A DNA stretch of 64,000 bases from an uncultured Chloroflexia bacterium (lineage in GTDB: Bacteria; Chloroflexota; Limnocylindria; Limnocylindrales; CSP1-4): assembly GCA_963813705.1 (NCBI GenBank), contig CAWFAH010000010.1, positions 921,085 to 985,084 on the forward strand, in the 5' to 3' direction. The translations under genes were made by a program, and so were the position numbers. This document shows, one piece after another, positions 2,755 through 46,589 of this stretch (the first letter of the stretch is position 1; the number at the start of each line of letters is the position of its first letter). The notes under the pieces are model-generated. The model was not told where the DNA came from. It did not search any database and was given only the letters and a program-made list of their open reading frames with translations.

Positions 2755-4893
2755 CTAGCTCGCCGCGACGGGCGCTGCCGACTCCGGCGCCGCCGCGACC
2801 GGCGCGGGTGTCGCGGCCGTGCGACCGAGCTCGATCCCGATCGACTCGAGCCAGCGCCGGATGTTGCGGTAGATCGCCGGCGCCCCGAGCGGGATCGGCT
2901 CGTCGAGCTCCCACTCGGTCGGGTGGAGGATGAACGGCTCGGTCTGCGGACCGCCGAGCCCGCCGTGCGATCCGATCAGCTCCTCGAACGCGGCCACCTC
3001 GCCCAGCTCGGGGTCGTACTGGCTGATGAGCAGCAGGTCCGGGGCGTGGGTCATCGCGTCCTCGCGCTTGAGGCTCATGATCGTGTGCGGCCCGAACAGG
3101 GCCGTCGGGTCGTCGCCGTCGACCCGGTCCTGGTCGAGGTAGCGCACGCCCTTCGGGCCGAGCACGACGGCCCCCTGGCTTGCCGTGCGGACCATCAGCA
3201 TCGCCACGCCCGGGTGCGCGGCCAGCGTCGTGACGAGGTTCGGGTGGAGCTCCTCGAGCTCCTCGGCCGTCAGCCGATGATCGTTCCCGGTGAACCAGAC
3301 GAGACCGAGGTTGCCCGACCCGACCACCACGATCGTCGACTCGTCGGCCGGCGGGGGGAGCTCCTCCTGGTCGAGATCGACGACGCCGTCGGTCGTCCGG
3401 CTGGCCAGCGCGGCCCGGGCGACGGTGGGGCCTACCCCGCGGCTCCGGGTGATCTCGGACAGGAACGAGTTGACGAACGTCGATCCCTCGGCCTGGGTCG
3501 TCGTCTGCACGACGGTTGCGCGTCCGCTCATCAGGTCGCGGACCACCTCGCCGAGGCTCTTCCCGTAGCGCTGCTTGAACGTGGCGCCGAGGCTCTGGCC
3601 GTGGTCCGACAGGACGATGAACCGGTACGGGCGGGGAGCATCCTCGGCCGCCTTGGCGAGGACCGCGATCGCCGCGTCGACGCCGTCGAGCGCCTCGAAC
3701 GACTCGACCCGCTCGGGTCCGCAGTGGTGGGCCAGCTCGTCGTAGTCGGTGAAGTCGCAGTAGATGACGTTCGTGCCGCGGTACATCTCGTCGATGACGA
3801 GCGACGTGTTGACGTCGCGCAGGAAGACGTTGCTCGCGGCGCGCATCCCCGCGTACTTCATCCCCCGGTGCATCTGCGGCTGGATGCCGGCCCGCCGGGT
3901 GCGCCGCGCCTGGACGAGCTCCTTGATGAACTCGCCGAGGAACAGGGTGAACGAGCGGAGGTAGCCGGTCGGGCTGAAGAAGAAGCCCATGAACGCCTTG
4001 CTGTCGCCGATCCCCTGCGATTCGTCCTTGATCGCCGCCGTGGTGAGGTAGGAGCGCGTCGCATCGCCGGTCATCAGGTTGCAGATGCTGGCGCCGTTGT
4101 TCGACAGGAGGCCCTCGCCGTTCGACAGGCGCCGGACGATCTCGCCCGCGTCGACCGGGTTGCTCGAGACCATCAGGTGCTGACGATCGCGCTCGTACCA
4201 GCGGAAGGCGGGGATCCCGTCGTTCGTCCCGTGGAGGATGCCGGCCTGGGAGGCCGAGGTCATCGACGGCAGGATCGCCTCCCAGCGCGACAGGGTATGG
4301 CTCTTATCGCGGACCCAGCCGGCCATCGTGTTGACCGAGCCGGCCCGGATCCGACCGGCCAGGATCGGGTAGGCGAGACCGTCGATCTGGAGGATGACGA
4401 CGCCCGGCTTGTCGCTCTTCGGGCCGGCTCGCTGGACGAGCAGGCTCTGGACGAGCAGCCCGTAGAACGACCCGCCGCGGTCGACCCCGAGGATGGAGGT
4501 GAGGATCGTGTTCACGATCGCGTACACGAACGACCCGACGAGCGCGGTCAGGAACGCGTCGACGTGGACGCCGGGCGACCACTGGGCGACCACGAGGAAG
4601 GCGACCACCTGGAGGACGAGGACGAGGACGCCGGTCAGGATGAGCGAACGGGCGGCCACGAACGCCAGCAGGACGGTCCGCACGACCGCGTTGAACAGCG
4701 CCATCAGGATCACGGCGAGGACGGCGGCCCACAGCGAATCGAGGGTGATCCTCGGGAGCAGCCACGCCGTGATGACGAACGAGACCGTCGCGACGAGCAG
4801 GGTGAGGATCAGTCGTCGGACGAGCGCCCACGGGCCGCCGCGCCACTCCCAGAGGACCCGCAGCTGGGTCCGGTACAGATCGAGCAGGCCCAT
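2755..4893 (-). CDS. Membrane-anchored alkaline phosphatase / nucleotide pyrophosphatase-phosphodiesterase (type I phosphodiesterase) family protein with N-terminal holin-like 4-TM domain
   Basis: N-terminal 140 aa forms 4 TM helices. Catalytic domain motifs VVILQIDGLAY, PSMTSASQAGILHG (PTKTFPNH-like) and SDHGQ match the NPP/AlkP superfamily. Confidence 0.85.
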   Translation of the reverse strand: MGLLDLYRTQLRVLWEWRGGPWALVRRLILTLLVATVSFVITAWLLPRITLDSLWAAVLAVILMALFNAVVRTVLLAFVAARSLILTGVLVLVLQVVAFLVVAQWSPGVHVDAFLTALVGSFVYAIVNTILTSILGVDRGGSFYGLLVQSLLVQRAGPKSDKPGVVILQIDGLAYPILAGRIRAGSVNTMAGWVRDKSHTLSRWEAILPSMTSASQAGILHGTNDGIPAFRWYERDRQHLMVSSNPVDAGEIVRRLSNGEGLLSNNGASICNLMTGDATRSYLTTAAIKDESQGIGDSKAFMGFFFSPTGYLRSFTLFLGEFIKELVQARRTRRAGIQPQMHRGMKYAGMRAASNVFLRDVNTSLVIDEMYRGTNVIYCDFTDYDELAHHCGPERVESFEALDGVDAAIAVLAKAAEDAPRPYRFIVLSDHGQSLGATFKQRYGKSLGEVVRDLMSGRATVVQTTTQAEGSTFVNSFLSEITRSRGVGPTVARAALASRTTDGVVDLDQEELPPPADESTIVVVGSGNLGLVWFTGNDHRLTAEELEELHPNLVTTLAAHPGVAMLMVRTASQGAVVLGPKGVRYLDQDRVDGDDPTALFGPHTIMSLKREDAMTHAPDLLLISQYDPELGEVAAFEELIGSHGGLGGPQTEPFILHPTEWELDEPIPLGAPAIYRNIRRWLESIGIELGRTAATPAPVAAAPESAAPVAAS

Positions 4894-39982: not shown

Positions 39983-40429
39983 ATGGCCCGGTTCGGGAAG
40001 ATCCTCCTGGCCACCGACCTGACCTCGGCGTCGAGCTCGGCGACGGAGGAGGCCGTCGAGCTCGCGGTCCGGCTCGACGCGCGCCTCCTCGTGATGTCCG
40101 TCCTCGAGACCGGCAAGGGTGGCATGCCCCGGCGCGGCGTCCGGCCGGAGGTTCGCGATGCCCGCTCGCGGGAGATCCAGGCCGTCGTCGGCCAGGCACG
40201 CGCGGCGGGCGCCGATGCCAGCTTCCTCGTATGGGAAGGCGAGGCCGGAGAGGCAATCACCTCCGCGGCCGAGGCCGAGCAGGTCGACCTCATCGTCGTC
40301 GGCTCGCACGGACGGAGCACGGTCGGCCGCTTCCTGCTGGGCAGCGTGTCCGATCATGTCGTCCACCACGCCACGTGCCCGGTCCTCGTCGTCCGGGCCC
40401 CCGAGGACCTTCCGACCCCGATGGGCTGA
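39983..40429 (+). CDS. Universal stress protein (UspA family)
   Basis: [23 protein letters not shown]...[37 protein letters not shown] with the ATP-binding G-2X-G-9X-G(S/T) motif. An alternative ATG at 39941 is possible. Confidence 0.85.
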
Positions 40430-40439
40430 GGCGCGACCA

Positions 40440-40530
40440 CGGGCTGTTGCGCCGGCCCGGGTTGTGGCACCGGCGCGGGCCGTGGCATCGGCGCGGGTTG
40501 TGGCACCGGCGCGGGCGAGGCGTTCCGCGG
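40440..40530. repeat. GC-rich ~20-bp tandem repeats (GTGGCACCGGCGCGGG x3, imperfect) between convergent genes; possible bidirectional terminator
   Basis: Seen directly. Contains GCGCCGG/CCGGCGC inverted elements capable of alternative hairpins. Confidence 0.4.
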
Positions 40531-40531
40531 G

Positions 40532-41335
40532 CTACCTCGTGTACGTACCGTCCGGGTCGAGCTCGACCCGGATGAGCCGGAGCTCCTCGGCGGTCGGCTC
40601 GGGGGTCGTGGTCAGTTCGGGCGCCACTTTCGGCTCCCAGCCGATCGTGTCCCGGACGGCGTCGACCGTCGCGCCGGGATGGAGGGCGTCGAGCCGCATC
40701 TCGCCGGTCTCATCGAAGTGATAGACGGCCAGGTCGGTCACCACCACGCTCGGTCCGCTCCCGAGCCAGCCCTGTTCGCGTCGGATCGACGCGGCGCCGG
40801 CCGCGCCACCGAGGTTGCCGGGGCTCGTCCGGAAGTCGATCCGCTCGACGAACGAGCGCTTCGACTGGCGCATGATTACGAACACCCGGCGCGCGTTGAT
40901 GGCGATCTCGCAGGCACCGCCCGAACCGGGCAGCCGCGTCAAAGGATGGGCGTAGTCGTCGCCGATGACCGTAGTGTTGATGTTGCCGAACCGGTCGATC
41001 TGTGCGGCGCCCAGGAAGCCGACGTCGATCAGCCCGCCCTGGAGGTAGTAGCTGAACAGCTCGAACATGCTCGTGACCGCGATCGCCCCGCTGACGATCG
41101 TCGGGTCGCCGATGCTGAGCGGCAGGCGCGCCGGCTGCGCCCCGAACACGCCCGCCTCGTAGACGAGCTCGAGATCGGGGGCGACCGTGCGCTTGGCGAG
41201 GTTGACCGCGATGTTGGGCAGCCCGACCCCGACGAAGCAGACCCGCTGGCCGGCGAGCTCGCGGGCGGCCGCCACGATCATCATCTCGGACCTCGAGAAG
41301 GGCGCGCCGGTTCCCGCGTTCCGTTCAGTCATGCC
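40532..41335 (-). CDS. CoA-transferase subunit B (3-oxoacid / glutaconate CoA-transferase beta subunit family)
   Basis: ~267 aa from MTERNAGTGAPFSRSEMMIVAAARELAG. Conserved block in sequence: GAAQIDRFGNINTTVIGDY. Confidence 0.85.
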   Translation of the reverse strand, partial: GMTERNAGTGAPFSRSEMMIVAAARELAGQRVCFVGVGLPNIAVNLAKRTVAPDLELVYEAGVFGAQPARLPLSIGDPTIVSGAIAVTSMFELFSYYLQGGLIDVGFLGAAQIDRFGNINTTVIGDDYAHPLTRLPGSGGACEIAINARRVFVIMRQSKRSFVERIDFRTSPGNLGGAAGAASIRREQGWLGSGPSVVVTDLAVYHFDETGEMRLDALHPGATVDAVRDTIGWEPKVAPELTTTPEPTAEELRLIRVELDPDGTYTR

Positions 41336-41735
41336 GCACCGGTTCGCCGGTTGTCCTGACCCGCGGGCGCGTGCGTTGCCGGAGCATGTTGCTCGTGATG
41401 CCTGTCGCCGCATCGGCGGGCCGGGCCGGCGGGACTCGGGCCGGGCGCGCCTCGGCGGTCATGCCGGCGTCGCCAGGCCGGACGCCGCGGGCCGTGGCGC
41501 CTCTGGACCGCCGAACCTGGGACGTTCGAATGGGCGGTTCAGAGGTGACCGACCGCCGGATCGTTCGCCCGGTGTTCCATCCGGCGGCCGGCACCCCGAT
41601 CTGCCCCGCACCTGAACACCAGGCGTTCGAACCGCGACCCGGCCAGGGGTCCAACCGCCCGTCGGAACACCCGGCGTTCGGCGGAGGCCCCAACGGGAGC
41701 CGCGGGCCCACGGGCCCAGCGGTAACGCTCAGGCT

Positions 41736-41864
41736 GATGCGGCGACTCGCATCACCGACGAGGTGCCCGGACGGCGCGATGCGGCGACTCGCATCACCGA
41801 CGAGGTGCCCGGACGGCGCGATGCGGCGGAAGCTCGCATCACCGACAGAGGTGCCCGGACGGCG
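41736..41864. repeat. Tandem repeat, 42-bp unit x3 (third copy 45 bp), GATGCGGCGACTCGCATCACCGACGAGGTGCCCGGACGGCGC; each unit begins with a hairpin GATGCG-N6-CGCATC; MIRU/VNTR-like intergenic repeat
   Basis: Units at 41736-41777, 41778-41819 and 41820-41864. Copies 1 and 2 are identical. Copy 3 carries small insertions. Unit lengths are multiples of 3. Confidence 0.7.
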
Positions 41865-41936
41865 CGGAAGGCGGGCTCCACGCGGGAGGCCGGCGGGCGT
41901 TCGCGGGGGCCAGGGCCGGCGAGCCGGCCGCCGGGC

Positions 41937-42836
41937 TCATCGGTACTGCCCGTAATCGACCGAGCCGGACGGCGCCGAGCCGCTCGGCTGGAGCGCCGCG
42001 ACGCGCTCGGAACCGAGCTTCGCGACGTAGTCGGCACGCCCGTCGAGGCCATAGACCCAGTCGCCCAGCCAGGCCTGGATCGCCGCCTCGTCGCGGCTGA
42101 TCGGATCCCAGTCGAGGTAGAACCGGTTGTCGCGGTCGTAGGCGCCCTGGACGTACGACGGGTGCGCGCCCCACGGCTCGACGACGACGGCGTCGACGAT
42201 CAGCCCGGGGATGATCGTCCGGTTCGGGTCGGCCCGGACGACCGCCTCGTCGACCAGCTCCTCGACGACGACGATGACCCGCTCGGCGGCGAACGCGGCC
42301 TCCTTCTGGCAGCCGAGGAGGCCCCAGACCTGGGTGTTGCCGGCGGCGTCGGCGCGCTGGGCGTGGATCACCGTGACGTCGGGGCGGAGCGGCGGGACGG
42401 CGTAGACGACCCCGTCGCCGTACGGCGAGGCGATCTCGCGGATCAGCGGGTTCGCCTTCGGCAGGTCGGTCTCGAAGTAGCTCCGGAGCGGGTAGAACGG
42501 CAGGTTCGCCGCCCCGGCCGTGTACCGCCCGACCATCCCGAAGTGGCTGTACTCCTCGATCTCGAGGGGTGCCGGGTCGGCGTCCTCGATCCGCCGCCGG
42601 ATCGCGTTCAGCCCACCGACTCCCGGGTTGCCGAGCCAGCTGAAGATGAGCTTCCGGGCCACGCCGCCGGCGACCATCTGGTCGTAGATCAGGTCCGGCG
42701 TCAGGCGGGCGAGGGTGAGGTCGCGCTTCCGCTGGCGGATGATCTCGTGCCCGGCGGCGAACGAGATGAGATGGGTGAAGCCCTCGATCGCCACGGTGTC
42801 GCCATTCCGGACGAGCTCGGCGACGGCGTCGCGCAT
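41937..42836 (-). CDS. CoA-transferase subunit A (glutaconate/3-oxoacid CoA-transferase alpha subunit family)
   Basis: MRDAVAELVRNGDTVAIEGFTHLISFAAGHEIIR...; the start may be further upstream (VSSSKVAT). Confidence 0.8.
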   Translation of the reverse strand: MRDAVAELVRNGDTVAIEGFTHLISFAAGHEIIRQRKRDLTLARLTPDLIYDQMVAGGVARKLIFSWLGNPGVGGLNAIRRRIEDADPAPLEIEEYSHFGMVGRYTAGAANLPFYPLRSYFETDLPKANPLIREIASPYGDGVVYAVPPLRPDVTVIHAQRADAAGNTQVWGLLGCQKEAAFAAERVIVVVEELVDEAVVRADPNRTIIPGLIVDAVVVEPWGAHPSYVQGAYDRDNRFYLDWDPISRDEAAIQAWLGDWVYGLDGRADYVAKLGSERVAALQPSGSAPSGSVDYGQYR

Positions 42837-43003
42837 CGTCGCGACCTTGGAGCTGCTCACGGTCCGATTATCGCGGGCCTGCCGCCCAGCCGTCGCTCCC
42901 CCGGCGACACGGTTTCGTACGATGTCGGACGGGAGTGCGGTCGGACGGGAGTGTCGCGGCGACGCGGGAGATCGCCGCGCGGAGGGAACGGGAGGGTCGC
43001 CGG

Positions 43004-44222
43004 GTGGCCTCGGTTCAACGCGCCCAGGCGGGCTGGGCATCGCTCGCCCGGGGGCTCTTCCTCGTGGCGATGGCCCTGTTCGTGATCACCGTCGCGATCG
43101 GCATCGTCAACGGGCTGGACCTCTACACGTTCGACCACAACCAGCTGCTGACCCACGTCCACTCGGGGACGCTCGGCTGGATCACGCTCAGCCTCGTCGC
43201 CGGTACGTTCTGGCTCGTTCGCGACGGTGACCGCCGGCTCGCGGCGACGCTGGCGATCCTGATCCCGATCTACGTGGCTGCGTTCTACTCGGGCAGCCTG
43301 CCCGCCCGCGCCATCACCGGCACGGCGCTCCTCGTGGCGATCCTGTGGCTCGTCGGGTGGGTCTGGCTCGCCGTCCGCCGCGAACCGACGATCCCGCTCC
43401 TCGCGGTGACCCTTGGGCTCACCTCCTTCGCCTACGGCGCGATCATCGGCGTCCTGATCCAGATCCAGCTCGCGAGCGGGACGAACCTGTTCCCCGGCGG
43501 GGCGGACGCGATCGGCGCGCACGCGGGAACGATGGTCTTCAGCTACCTCATCCTCGTGGCGATGGGGCTGCTCGAGTGGCGCGTCGTCGGCCTGCGCCGG
43601 CGCTCGCGGACCGGGCTCGTCCAGATCGCCGCCCTGTTCGGCGGCGGGCTCCTGCTCGCGCTGAGCCTGCTCTTCCTCGACGCCGCCGCGGTCCAGGCGG
43701 TCGGCGGCATCTACCTCCTGGTCGAGGTCGTGGCCGTCGCCCTGTTCACCGGCCGGGTCGTCCGGCACGCCGTGCGGATCGACTGGCGTGCGGCCAGCCC
43801 GGAGCGCCATCTCGCCGCATCGGCCGCGTTCGTCCTGGTGGCCACGGCGATCTTCCTGTACGTCGTCTTCCTGTTCATCTCGACGGGCGACCAGTCGAAG
43901 ATCCCGGCCGGCGTCCTGATCGCCAGCGACCACGCCGCGTTCATCGGCGTGATCACCAACCTGATCTTCGGGCTGGCGCTGCGGCTCGGCACCGACCGGC
44001 GCGACCGCTGGCCGTGGGCCGACCAGGTCGTGTTCTGGGCGATGAACGGCGGGCTGCTCGTCTTCCTCGCTGGGACTGATCGCGGTGTCGCCGGAGCTCA
44101 AGCGAGTCGGCAGCCCGATCATGGGCATCGCCATCCTCCTCGGCCTGGCGACGATCGCCGTGCGCCTCTGGTCGTCGGACCTGCGCGAGGCCGACACGGT
44201 GGACGAGATCGCGGTCTCCTGA
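43004..44222 (+). pseudogene. Hypothetical polytopic membrane protein (~10 TM) with single-base frameshift near 44072-44075
   Basis: GTG start with a GGGAGGG RBS. Frame 1 gives TM helices up to ...LLVFLAG. A coherent C-terminus (LIAVSPELKRVGSPIMGIAILLGLATIAVRLWSSDLREADTVDEIAVS*) continues in frame +1 to the stop at 44220-22. An extra G in a GGG run explains the shift. Confidence 0.55.
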
Positions 44223-45692: not shown

Positions 45693-46589
45693 GTGAGGCC
45701 GCCGATCCGCTTCGGGCTGTTCATGAGCCAGGCCGGCCGGACCTGGGACGAGGTCCTCGACGGCTTCCGGCTCGCCGAGGACCTCGGCTTCGACCATGGC
45801 TGGCTCGTCGACCACCTCGTGGACACGGACCACGGGCCGGGCGTCCCGGTCCTCGAGGCGTGGACGCTGCTCGCGGCGCTCGCTGCACGGACGAGCCGGA
45901 TCCGGCTGGGCGTCCTCGTCACGAGCAACACCTTCCGCCACCCGGCCCTCCTGCTCAAGGAGGCCGTCACGGTCGACCACGTCAGCGGTGGCCGGCTCAC
46001 CCTCGGCCTCGGGTCGGGCTGGAACGTGGACGAGCACCGGCGCTACGGGATCGACCTCCCGGAGCCGAAGGAGCGGGTGGACCGCCTCGCCGAGGCGGTC
46101 GAGCTCATCGACCGCCTGCAGCGCGAGGAGCGGACGACGTTCGCCGGCCGCTTCTACCACGTCGACGACGCGCCGCTCGACCCGCGGCCGCTGCAGCAAC
46201 CCCGGATCCCGCTGCTCATCGCCGCCCACCGGCCGCGCATGCTCCGCCTCGCGGCGCGCTACGCCGACCAGTGGGACACGTTCCCGACGATCCCCGGGGC
46301 GTCGACCGACGGCGTCGCCCTGTCGATCGCCGAGCAGTCCGCACTTCTCGACGCCGCCTGCCGCGAGCTCGGCCGCAACCCCGACACGATCCGTCGCTCG
46401 ACCTGGGCCGAGTGGGCCGACGTGCTGGTCACCACCGGAGCGTTCGAGGCGTTCGTGGAGTCGCACCGCCGGCTGGGCTTTACCGACTTCACCGTGGTGC
46501 TGCCGCCGCCGGGCCGGCGCAACGTCCTCGAGGCGGTCGCGCGCGACGTGATTCCCCGGCTGCGCGTGGAGGACGTGGCCGCGCGCTGA
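45693..46589 (+). CDS. LLM class F420-dependent oxidoreductase (luciferase-like monooxygenase family)
   Basis: IRFGLFMSQAG...LGFDHGWLVDHL...RIRLGVLVTSNTFRHPALLLKEAVTVDHVSGGRLTLGLGSGW, classic LLM blocks. GTG start. Confidence 0.85.
   Translation: MRPPIRFGLFMSQAGRTWDEVLDGFRLAEDLGFDHGWLVDHLVDTDHGPGVPVLEAWTLLAALAARTSRIRLGVLVTSNTFRHPALLLKEAVTVDHVSGGRLTLGLGSGWNVDEHRRYGIDLPEPKERVDRLAEAVELIDRLQREERTTFAGRFYHVDDAPLDPRPLQQPRIPLLIAAHRPRMLRLAARYADQWDTFPTIPGASTDGVALSIAEQSALLDAACRELGRNPDTIRRSTWAEWADVLVTTGAFEAFVESHRRLGFTDFTVVLPPPGRRNVLEAVARDVIPRLRVEDVAAR

Follow-up and report, generated by a model that had tools for sequence, protein, structure and literature searches.

Organization of the Gene Pair and Its Spacer

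Within the window, by which we mean the whole 64-kb stretch of DNA that was analysed, two ORFs on the minus strand match Pfam PF01144 (CoA_trans) and represent the subunits of a CoA transferase; the GC content is 72%. The gene for subunit A (41937-42836) encodes a glutaconate-CoA-transferase-like protein of 299 amino acids, has strong GC3, starts where the called ortholog in the related locus L001 starts and ends with a TGA at 41939-41937. The gene for subunit B (40532-41332, ATG at 41332-41330) is intact and encodes 266 amino acids, and none of the closest B proteins in the searched collection is more than 96% identical to it. The pair is indeed split, as the first-pass annotation had reported, by a gap that it put at 600 bp and that measures 604 nt (41333-41936, minus strand). 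This noncoding spacer is a lineage-specific insertion at what was ancestrally an ATGA stop/start overlap. An ATGA that includes the stop codon of A (41937-41940, minus strand) borders it on the left and pairs with a second ATGA on the right (41329-41332), the two forming direct repeats that flank the filled site.

The spacer holds one tandem array (41736-41866, minus strand), which TRF describes with a period of 42, 3.0 copies, 95% matches and a score of 226, making it the top-scoring tandem repeat of the window. Its three units measure 42, 42 and 46 nt, each being composed of a hairpin core and a linker of ~14-18 nt. Units 1 and 2 are identical 42-mers, and 0 of 100 shuffles gave any match of this kind. 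A GATGCG-loop-CGCATC hairpin is present in every unit, but the six-nucleotide loop that had been ascribed to all three is N9 in the third, which is longer by 3 nt in the loop and by 1 nt in the linker. The lengths of 42/42/45 originally given are hence right for the first two units and wrong for the third, and with the third unit falls the generalization that unit lengths are multiples of 3. The 42-nt unit is duplicated as a whole, linker between hairpins included, which leaves no unique spacers; a CRISPR array, in which identical repeats alternate with unique spacers of similar length, was therefore rejected.

We described the hairpin with a model, R1, built from copies outside the window only. 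In the window R1 matches exactly four hairpins at 29-48 bits, the next best match reaching 13.8 bits, and by this measure the hairpin is confined within the 64 kb to this spacer. Three REP-like copies of a GAG loop subtype lie on the minus strand: copy 1 at 41730-41763 (forward on the operon sense strand; 48.2 bits, E 6e-11), copy 2 at 41772-41805 (47.5 bits, E 1e-10) and copy 3, with its 3-nt loop insertion, at 41814-41850 (29.4 bits, E 8.5e-6). Copy 4, of a CTG loop subtype, lies on the plus strand, is inverted with respect to copies 1-3 and forms the other arm of the cluster (36 bits, E 1.3e-7); this hairpin, at 41387-41420, is missing from the first-pass annotation. The inverted-repeat arms at 41395-41417 and 41733-41755 are 87% complementary.

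The central segment of the spacer (41513-41679, unstranded) bears four GAAC-N7-GTTC-type palindromes, at 41513-27, 41563-77, 41614-28 and 41665-79, spaced 49-51 nt apart. The GTTCGAA motifs noticed earlier in the spacer are real, two of the three sites in the window falling there, within these palindromes. Outside the window, the GAAC-N7-GTTC motif occurs in orthologous spacers only (L003, L104, L105 and L046) and is absent from the other 103 loci. The central 300 nt likewise matched only orthologous loci when sought as a dispersed element by BLAST of all fetched loci and by a metagenome pattern scan. One palindrome, GAACGCCGGGYGTTC, is common to the window, L003, L104, L105 and the more distant L046, and appears nowhere else in 107 loci. 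The GAACGCCGGGCGTTC palindrome is also present in the L046 spacer, the central region of which otherwise gave no BLAST match to that of the window; its being shared with an otherwise unmatched spacer could mean function.

Empty and Filled Alleles in Related Genomes

The locus is collinear, at 89-98% identity, with that of the "uncultured Chloroflexia" MAG MFD03975.bin.2.87 and of Limnocylindria-type Chloroflexota MAGs. In six orthologous loci (L001 and L108-L112) the site is empty and A and B overlap by a single ATGA, as expected of genes that had been taken to be normally adjacent or overlapping. Filled alleles carry spacers of 122 nt (L002), ~406 nt (L003, L104 and L105), ~505 nt (L046) and 604 nt (the window). 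All four have ATGA on the right, and all have it on the left except L003, where it is GTGA. At least one hairpin was matched by R1 in each filled allele and none in the empty alleles. The comparison of copy number across strains proposed at first pass, which we ran between lineages that differ by ~8% in B, gave one unit in L003 and L105 versus three in the window. At the same A/B junction L113 carries a different insert, a doubly coupled gene for a 122-amino acid glyoxalase. Together these loci offer a natural allele series for the tolerance of the junction, from empty through 122, ~406, ~505 and 604 nt to a real inserted gene. The closest relative changes across the A/B junction.

Differences between B and its L003 counterpart fall mostly at third codon positions (5/6/51 by position), and B remains under purifying selection. 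The spacer appears to evolve roughly neutrally, at about the rate of synonymous sites, its divergence being close to that of third codon positions in B (0.15 versus 0.20, 0.066 versus 0.068 and 0.057 versus 0.060).

Dispersal of the Hairpin in Related Genomes

In Limnocylindria-type Chloroflexota the hairpin core, CGTCCGTGATGCGAGTCGCCGCATC, which has ~25-34 nt and a 6-7-bp stem, recurs dispersed through intergenic DNA. In a scan of a genome collection GTGATGCNNGTCGCCGCATC gave mostly single matches in unrelated taxa, at least 14 exact copies in MFD03975.bin.2.87 (spread over 6 contigs), at least six in MFD01561.bin.2.78 and more in Limnocylindrales MAGs; as a repeat family it is confined to Chloroflexota/Limnocylindrales MAGs. 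MFD03975.bin.2.87 is the closest relative of the window, and its A/B site is empty. R1 gave ~40 matches in 23 loci. The 41 copies from outside the window align over a conserved 25-nt core with the consensus nnnCGTCCGTGATGCGAGTCGCCGCATCA, in which 12 columns are invariant and 6 nearly so, an invariance that is partly built in for the stem, because the pattern used to select copies fixes it and so also makes stem covariation uninformative. It had been proposed that the 42-bp unit be sought elsewhere in the genome. What recurs in relatives is its hairpin core only; no two clusters share a linker, and the 42-nt unit, made up of hairpin and linker, is peculiar to this locus.

A regular expression for the hairpin matched 45 times in 20 loci (41 times outside the window), and 33 of the 45 matches fall in none of the ORFs with a coding GC3 signature. 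The remaining 12 are located within stop-to-stop ORFs, for the most part close to the 5' end and ahead of the probable start, although the copies in L068 and L090 are probably truly coding. The neighboring genes are ordinary (MurJ, Mur ligase, MscS, PhoU-like, HtrA-like and MerR), and many copies sit between convergent or divergent genes rather than inside operons. Inverted pairs with one arm tandemly amplified are frequent among the copies in the related genome. One CTG-loop unit faces one to three GAG-loop units in L026, L033, L047, L065, L066 and the window, and the L026 cluster has one CTG and three GAG hairpins with a period of 48-49 nt. That each of these five clusters outside the window has a linker of its own points to local duplication.

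We searched for a transposase using tblastn with approximate RAYT and IS200 queries and Pfam on 18 hairpin-adjacent ORFs in related loci. No RAYT/IS200-like or other transposase lies beside any copy in ~260 kb of related sequence, and neither this sequence nor the window has a Y1_Tnp-like ORF. Because no transposase accompanies the copies, we infer mobility of the hairpin, and some agent to mobilize it, only from its dispersal and from the empty and filled sites.

Origin of the Spacer

We consider it probable, at roughly 70%, that the spacer is a REP/BIME-like mosaic that was inserted where stop and start overlap and has grown through local duplication. DNA bearing a hairpin would have entered exactly at the ATGA overlap of A and B and left ATGA on both sides, although selection that maintains both the stop and the start codon, in place of a target-site duplication, could also account for the flanking repeats. 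In the resulting structure one CTG hairpin would face one to three inverted GAG hairpins, with the arms here enclosing ~315 nt that include the GAAC-N7-GTTC palindromes. The three tandem units would stem from local duplication of hairpin plus linker, by slippage or unequal recombination, and the two perfect 42-mers suggest that the duplication is recent. The insert is probably selfish or neutral DNA and the operon would still work, B being kept under purifying selection. A promoter and terminator scan of 40400-43300 found no sigma-70-like promoter and no terminator; since there is no terminator-like site, the spacer is presumably read through. Translation of B may then need ribosomes on an upstream open frame that ends at the B start, and the hairpins might affect mRNA stability or the A:B ratio. 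Such an origin would explain the odd split of two normally overlapping subunit genes by repeat invasion, and not by a hidden gene or a riboswitch.

A more specific alternative is that the insert is a functional analogue of the MIRU, a mobile element that targets ATGA overlaps within operons and relays ribosomes from A to B, so that its insertion is cheap. In its favor are the existence of empty beside filled sites, the latter bordered by ATGA on either side, and the fact that MIRUs are so described (PMC12548453, PMC3184786), and the junction has taken a real, doubly coupled gene in L113. A candidate relay is found in the window, where a predicted 45-codon upstream ORF (41325-41462, minus strand) has a TGA at 41327-41325 that overlaps the B start (ATGACTGA); its ATG is the B start codon used in L003-type alleles. 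In L003 itself a GTG overlaps the stop codon of A (GTGA), and an open frame of 135 codons ends in ATGA on the B start. In L002, the other L003-type alleles and L046 the frame likewise ends at ATGA, and the window has ATGACTGA there; in L002, L046 and the window it closes on the B ATG or 5 nt past it. From a reading of the sequence, the B start appears to be without an obvious Shine-Dalgarno motif in most alleles. However, an equal frame also stays open in dinucleotide-preserving shuffles (23-66% of trials, depending on the allele), the alleles, which are not independent, give a combined p of ~0.01-0.06, the 3'-end frames differ between alleles (indels of 17 and 24 nt) and the third unit disrupts the frame. 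The alleles thus weakly suggest a translational relay through the spacer. The other ~40 copies of the hairpin show no conserved ATGA or start-codon context in their flanks, and the many copies between convergent or divergent genes also speak against a preference for operon overlaps. On balance we regard a MIRU analogue as unlikely. Equally tentative is a bolder version, in which an undescribed, Limnocylindria-type mobile palindromic element inserts at ATGA, duplicates the tetranucleotide and keeps a relay frame, with its clusters acting as hotspots of tandem expansion and allele exchange. The change of closest relative across the junction fits such a hotspot of exchange by recombination, and, if this version is true, a distant phylum would have acquired by convergence a repeat that invades operons at low cost.

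A cis-regulatory role for the insert, with the GAAC palindromes as operators of a dimeric regulator, with the spacer encoding a structured RNA, or with an internal promoter that frees B from its coupling to A, seems to us distinctly improbable. The retention of GAACGCCGGGYGTTC in five spacers and the regular spacing of the palindromes are in its favor, and the whole spacer folds better than shuffles (z = -2.7 sense, -4.8 antisense). However, palindrome-rich DNA is expected to fold well on both strands, and single hairpins fold no better than shuffles (z ~ -1). Folding four orthologs to a consensus gave a covariation term of about 0 (+0.31), with ~14 broken against 2 compensatory pairs. Rfam gave 0 matches in the whole window at gathering thresholds and, for the spacer at E <= 10, sub-threshold eukaryotic and archaeal families only, so that the structured RNA suggested by the first-pass annotation finds no backing here. 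The near-synonymous divergence of the spacer, its frequent indels and the missing sigma-70-like promoter and terminator also argue against regulation, and L001, L002 and five other orthologs manage without the segment.

That the spacer is a gene or a recently decayed one, whether a 194-amino acid ORF on the plus strand, an open frame on the sense strand or a glyoxalase pseudogene, is very improbable and, we consider, already largely refuted. There are long open frames on both strands, and the L003 spacer (135 codons) is near the size of the 122-amino acid glyoxalase gene of L113. However, six-frame translation was negative, the spacer has a flat profile of GC by codon position where A and B have a strong GC3, Pfam and NCBIfam gave no matches on three spacer frames, and substitutions by codon phase (22/11/14) show no third-position excess, with indels that are not multiples of 3. 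The earlier judgment that the spacer holds no credible ORF was therefore sound. Two specific candidates were rejected: the 194-amino acid ORF (41371-41955), because stop codons interrupt its counterparts in L003, L104 and L105, and the glyoxalase pseudogene, since tblastn and blastn of the L113 gene against all spacers gave noise only. An assembly artefact, that is a collapsed, expanded or chimeric repeat, is scarcely credible, for although the short-read contigs L104-L106 break off within or close to the spacer and the upstream part of L106 seems chimeric, homologous spacers occur in independent assemblies from different samples (L003, L104, L105 and L107) and both flanks are collinear with L001.

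Comparison with Known Repeat Systems

An inserted REP/BIME-like mosaic, the reading that we prefer, can be set against three described kinds of repeat. With MITEs the spacer shares end hairpins that serve as 23-nt inverted termini (87% complementary), a noncoding body of ~315 nt and an ATGA direct repeat. In contrast to a MITE, the whole element is found at no other locus and the termini alone are repeated, and neither a transposase nor a parent insertion sequence is known to match it.

MIRUs, the mycobacterial interspersed repetitive units of Supply et al. 1997 (via PMC3184786 and PMC12548453), are DNA repeats that lie within operons at filled or empty sites, with tetranucleotide repeats and an ORF that overlaps the downstream start (PMC3184786, PMC12548453). 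The likeness is considerable: tandem units in the 40-100 bp range (here 42/42/46 nt) between co-oriented operon genes, sites found both empty and filled, with a direct repeat of four nucleotides (here ATGA), an open frame that overlaps the downstream start and a copy number that varies between lineages. However, the host here belongs to the Chloroflexota, dispersal is limited to the hairpin core and does not extend to the 42-nt unit, the length of the third unit departs from multiples of 3, the statistics leave the coupling ORF insecure and the remaining copies of the family show no preference for start codons. The first-pass term "MIRU-like" thus fits the form of the insert (its place within an operon, the filled and empty sites, the tetranucleotide flanks and the frame ending at the start) but not its family membership; nor can its traits be called those of a mycobacterial MIRU/VNTR locus, the nearest relatives being Chloroflexota/Limnocylindria-type MAGs. 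The array would be usable as a population marker only if within-species variation were shown.

The REP, BIME and REPIN elements of Enterobacteria and Pseudomonas (surveyed in PMC3733652, PMC3116915 and PMC3184786) resemble the hairpins in being short, imperfect conserved palindromes with many extragenic copies (here counted in relatives), single or clustered. Like BIMEs, the hairpins come as two subtypes in inverted pairs (heterodimers) with local amplification, and copies also occur within operons. They differ in their chloroflexotal host and in arms that lie ~315 nt apart here versus tens of nucleotides, and RAYT, the Y1 HUH transposase that partners REPs and REPINs, was sought in the window and ~260 kb of related loci and not found. 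REPs reported for Chloroflexi in the literature searched are of GTAG type only (PMC3733652). REPs of the two superfamilies carry an unpaired GTAG or CGTC tag at one end, and in CGTC families a CCA tail goes with loops of 4-5 nt and with stems of 8-9 bp whose first pairs are A/T (PMC3733652). Set against the GTAG and CGTC 1-4 families of that survey, the hairpin fits none, having a stem of 6-7 bp, a loop of 6 nt and no CCA tail; its majority consensus bears a weak CGTC-like tag 2 nt before the stem, of which one of four columns is invariant. The hairpins hence appear to form an undescribed REP/BIME-like family in an uncultured soil lineage of the Chloroflexota. In high-GC MAGs, clusters of this type interrupt short-read assemblies and lead gene callers astray, and the hairpin model could serve to mask them. 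The cluster in the A-B spacer is neither a gene nor a known RNA, nor is it a MIRU of the mycobacterial kind; it is of an ordinary selfish or neutral kind of bacterial repeat.

The CoA-transferase Pair Is Split by a Hairpin-rich Spacer

Within the window, which has a G+C content of ~72%, the two subunit genes lie on the minus strand, A at 41937-42836 (299 aa, with a start that agrees with the called ortholog and a TGA stop at 41939-41937) and B at 40532-41332 (266 aa, with its ATG at 41332-41330). Both match Pfam CoA_trans and are placed weakly by NCBIfam near the 3-oxoacid/acetate CoA-transferase subfamilies; the database name of homologues is "glutaconate CoA-transferase subunit B." The minus-strand spacer between them (41333-41936) measures 604 nt, in line with the ~600-bp split described in the first-pass annotation. 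It contains the top tandem repeat of the 64 kb as ranked by Tandem Repeats Finder (41736-41866, minus strand; period 42, 3.0 copies, score 226), with GATGCG-loop-CGCATC in every unit. The first two units are identical 42-mers, which no shuffle reproduced, and the reported 42/42/45 arrangement holds apart from the third unit, which is 46 nt (3 more in the loop and 1 in the linker). A fourth hairpin (41387-41420, plus strand) has the opposite orientation, and between the two hairpin arms lie four GAAC-N7-GTTC-type palindromes, spaced 49-51 nt apart, which account for the scattered GTTCGAA motifs noted earlier. The original observation of a repeat-bearing gap in the gene pair is confirmed, and its interpretation is supported in part.

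A second tandem repeat of 18 nt and 4.3 copies (CGGGCTGTGGCACCGGCG) is present at 40440-40516, where the convergent B and universal-stress-protein genes leave a short gap. In the related locus L001 the corresponding stretch differs, extends over 286 nt, which is longer than in the window, and has a 48-aa ORF called in it. L001, elsewhere collinear, also lacks the LLM-class luciferase-like monooxygenase gene found in the window at 45693-46589 (plus strand; Pfam PF00296, E 8e-53), a difference in gene content between close relatives.

Empty and Filled Alleles

A and B overlap by ATGA, the empty state, in L001 and L108-L112. In filled alleles the spacer is 122 nt (L002), ~406 nt (L003, L104, L105, and L107, homologous to that of the window but with one hairpin unit only), or ~505 nt (L046, the same A/B locus in the MAG MFD01561.bin.2.78). 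The L046 spacer combines a pair of inverted hairpins with a single GAACGCCGGGCGTTC palindrome and a tandem repeat (15 nt x6). All filled alleles carry ATGA (GTGA in L003) at the A stop and ATGA at the B start, and R1, a covariance model trained on 41 non-window hairpin copies, matches every filled allele and none of the empty ones.

The 15-nt unit of L046 (GGCACGCCCCGTGCA, about six copies at 4080-4200, minus strand) lies between the second hairpin and the ATG of B, in frame with B, and translates as (GTPRA)n. The L104 and L105 contigs start within the spacer. In the short-read contig L106, unrelated sequence of lower GC (1-160) stands ahead of the conserved 3' portion, probably reflecting chimeric assembly at the repeat. 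L113 (GCA_040960765.1, JBFOMR010000015.1) has at its A/B junction a real 122-aa glyoxalase/VOC-family gene (2136-2504), unrelated to the spacers and coupled at both ends, its start overlapping the A stop (TGATG) and its stop overlapping the B start (ATGA). Given this gene besides the hairpin spacers, the A/B junction took unrelated insertions more than once.

Divergence of the spacer follows that of B third codon positions (0.15 versus 0.20, 0.066 versus 0.068, and 0.057 versus 0.060) and is accompanied by indels of 17, 18, and 24 nt, which argues against strong constraint on the insert. Hence the insert drifts near-neutrally, with B intact under purifying selection. Identity between the window and L001 is 96-98% over A and the upstream membrane-protein gene (42025-43813), whereas B is nearer to L003-type alleles (third-position divergence 0.20 versus 0.26 for L001). 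This change of closest relative across the A/B junction is suggestive of recombination at the repeat cluster or close to it, which would explain a filled allele within an otherwise L001-like background.

The Hairpin Core Is Dispersed in Related Genomes

The pattern GTGATGCNNGTCGCCGCATC was scanned over 185,579 species-representative genomes and returned 100 stretches, mostly single matches in unrelated taxa, the chance level for 18 specified bases. At least 14 exact copies on six contigs were found in MFD03975.bin.2.87, an "uncultured Chloroflexia" MAG whose contig_139232 is collinear with the window over 12.8 kb (89-98% identity), at least six in MFD01561.bin.2.78, and 1-3 in each of several Limnocylindrales or Chloroflexota MAGs. 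Relaxing the search at the carrier loci gave 44 copies once oriented, three of the window's four hairpins among them; their consensus is CGTCCGTGATGCGAGTCGCCGCATCA, and their loops are of either a GAG or a CTG subtype. In the window R1 detects exactly the four spacer hairpins (48.2, 47.5, 36, and 29.4 bits), and the rest of the 64 kb scores no higher than 13.8 bits. What is dispersed is the hairpin core, in many copies, and not the full 42-nt unit.

Most copies are intergenic and adjoin ordinary housekeeping genes. Among 45 regex matches at 20 loci (41 of them outside the window), 33 avoid all ORFs whose GC3 signature is coding, and most of the other 12 precede the likely start codon of a stop-to-stop ORF, close to its 5' end. 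Two R1 matches from different MAGs (L068:217-250 and L090:2895-2928) share nearly the same flanking sequence and sit within stop-to-stop ORFs whose GC3 signal is that of coding DNA (...IDAATRITDEG... in translation); they may be conserved coding sequence rather than repeat copies, so not every pattern match is an extragenic element.

One CTG unit opposing one to three GAG units is the recurrent layout, seen in L026 (1+3 units, 48-49-nt period), L033, L047, L065, L066, and the window. Linker sequence is private to each cluster, indicating that arrays grow by local duplication and not by repeated insertion. The conserved 5' stem GTGATG of the family consensus (window 41730-41850) contains overlapping GTG, TGA, and ATG codons, classic stop/start overlap motifs, and the flank complementary to the hairpin tag is often the Shine-Dalgarno-like GGACGGAGG; both features may be coincidental.

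The Spacer Is Non-coding and Is No Known RNA

GC content by codon phase is flat in the spacer and strongly phased in A and B, three spacer frames gave no Pfam or NCBIfam match, and substitutions against orthologous spacers fall 22/11/14 by phase, compared with 5/6/51 in B. The claim that the gap has no credible ORF is thus borne out. A 194-aa plus-strand ORF was rejected, its frame being broken by stop codons in three orthologs.

The suggestion of a structured RNA fares poorly. Rfam yielded no match that reached its gathering score, and the matches below threshold were implausible; hairpins taken singly have no folding advantage over shuffles (z about -1), and the consensus fold of four orthologs is devoid of covariation signal. 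At full length the spacer does have a modest folding advantage over its shuffles, for either strand (z = -2.7 and -4.8), which is what palindrome-rich DNA would show.

Proposed Mechanism

Starting from what is directly observed, namely the insert anatomy, its membership in the hairpin family, the dispersal of that family in relatives, and the empty and filled alleles, we propose that insertion at the A/B ATGA overlap would have duplicated the tetranucleotide and that the array may then have expanded through slippage or unequal exchange. Neither sigma-70-like promoter nor intrinsic-terminator-like sites were found in the spacer, which, lacking the latter, would be transcribed by read-through. 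B could be translated by ribosomes arriving from an upstream frame that ends on its start: a 45-codon ORF (ATG 41462 to TGA 41325) overlaps the ATG of B as ATGACTGA, its own ATG is the B start codon in L003-type alleles, and L002, L003, and L046 have equivalent open frames ending at ATGA. Because frames stay open equally far in 23-66% of dinucleotide-preserving shuffles, they are only suggestive of such a translational relay. E. coli REPs are known to affect mRNA stability and stoichiometry (PMC3184786), and by analogy the hairpins could possibly influence mRNA stability or A:B stoichiometry.

Relation to Known Repeat Families

Like mycobacterial MIRUs (PMC3184786, PMC12548453), the element is intra-operonic, has tetranucleotide direct repeats and an open frame ending at a start codon, and varies in unit number between lineages. 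The resemblance is one of behaviour; membership fails on the host, which is no mycobacterium: the proteins nearest to B are from soil metagenomes and from MAGs of Chloroflexota, the collinear MAG is likewise from Chloroflexota, and further repeat carriers are labelled Candidatus Limnocylindrales. In addition, the dispersed part is the hairpin core, as opposed to the 42-nt unit. The inverted ends, with a short repeat beside them, recall a MITE, although the element does not recur as a whole.

The search for a transposase, RAYT or otherwise, covered a limited amount of sequence and came back empty, and the hairpin differs in stem, loop, and tail from the published GTAG and CGTC REP families (PMC3733652). 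Palindromic units paired in inverted clusters characterise REP/BIME or REPIN-like elements (PMC3733652, PMC3116915, PMC3184786), and the CTG-facing-GAG cluster of the window is built in this way. In kind, the spacer element is a REP/BIME-like repeat, showing those defining features that are open to testing.
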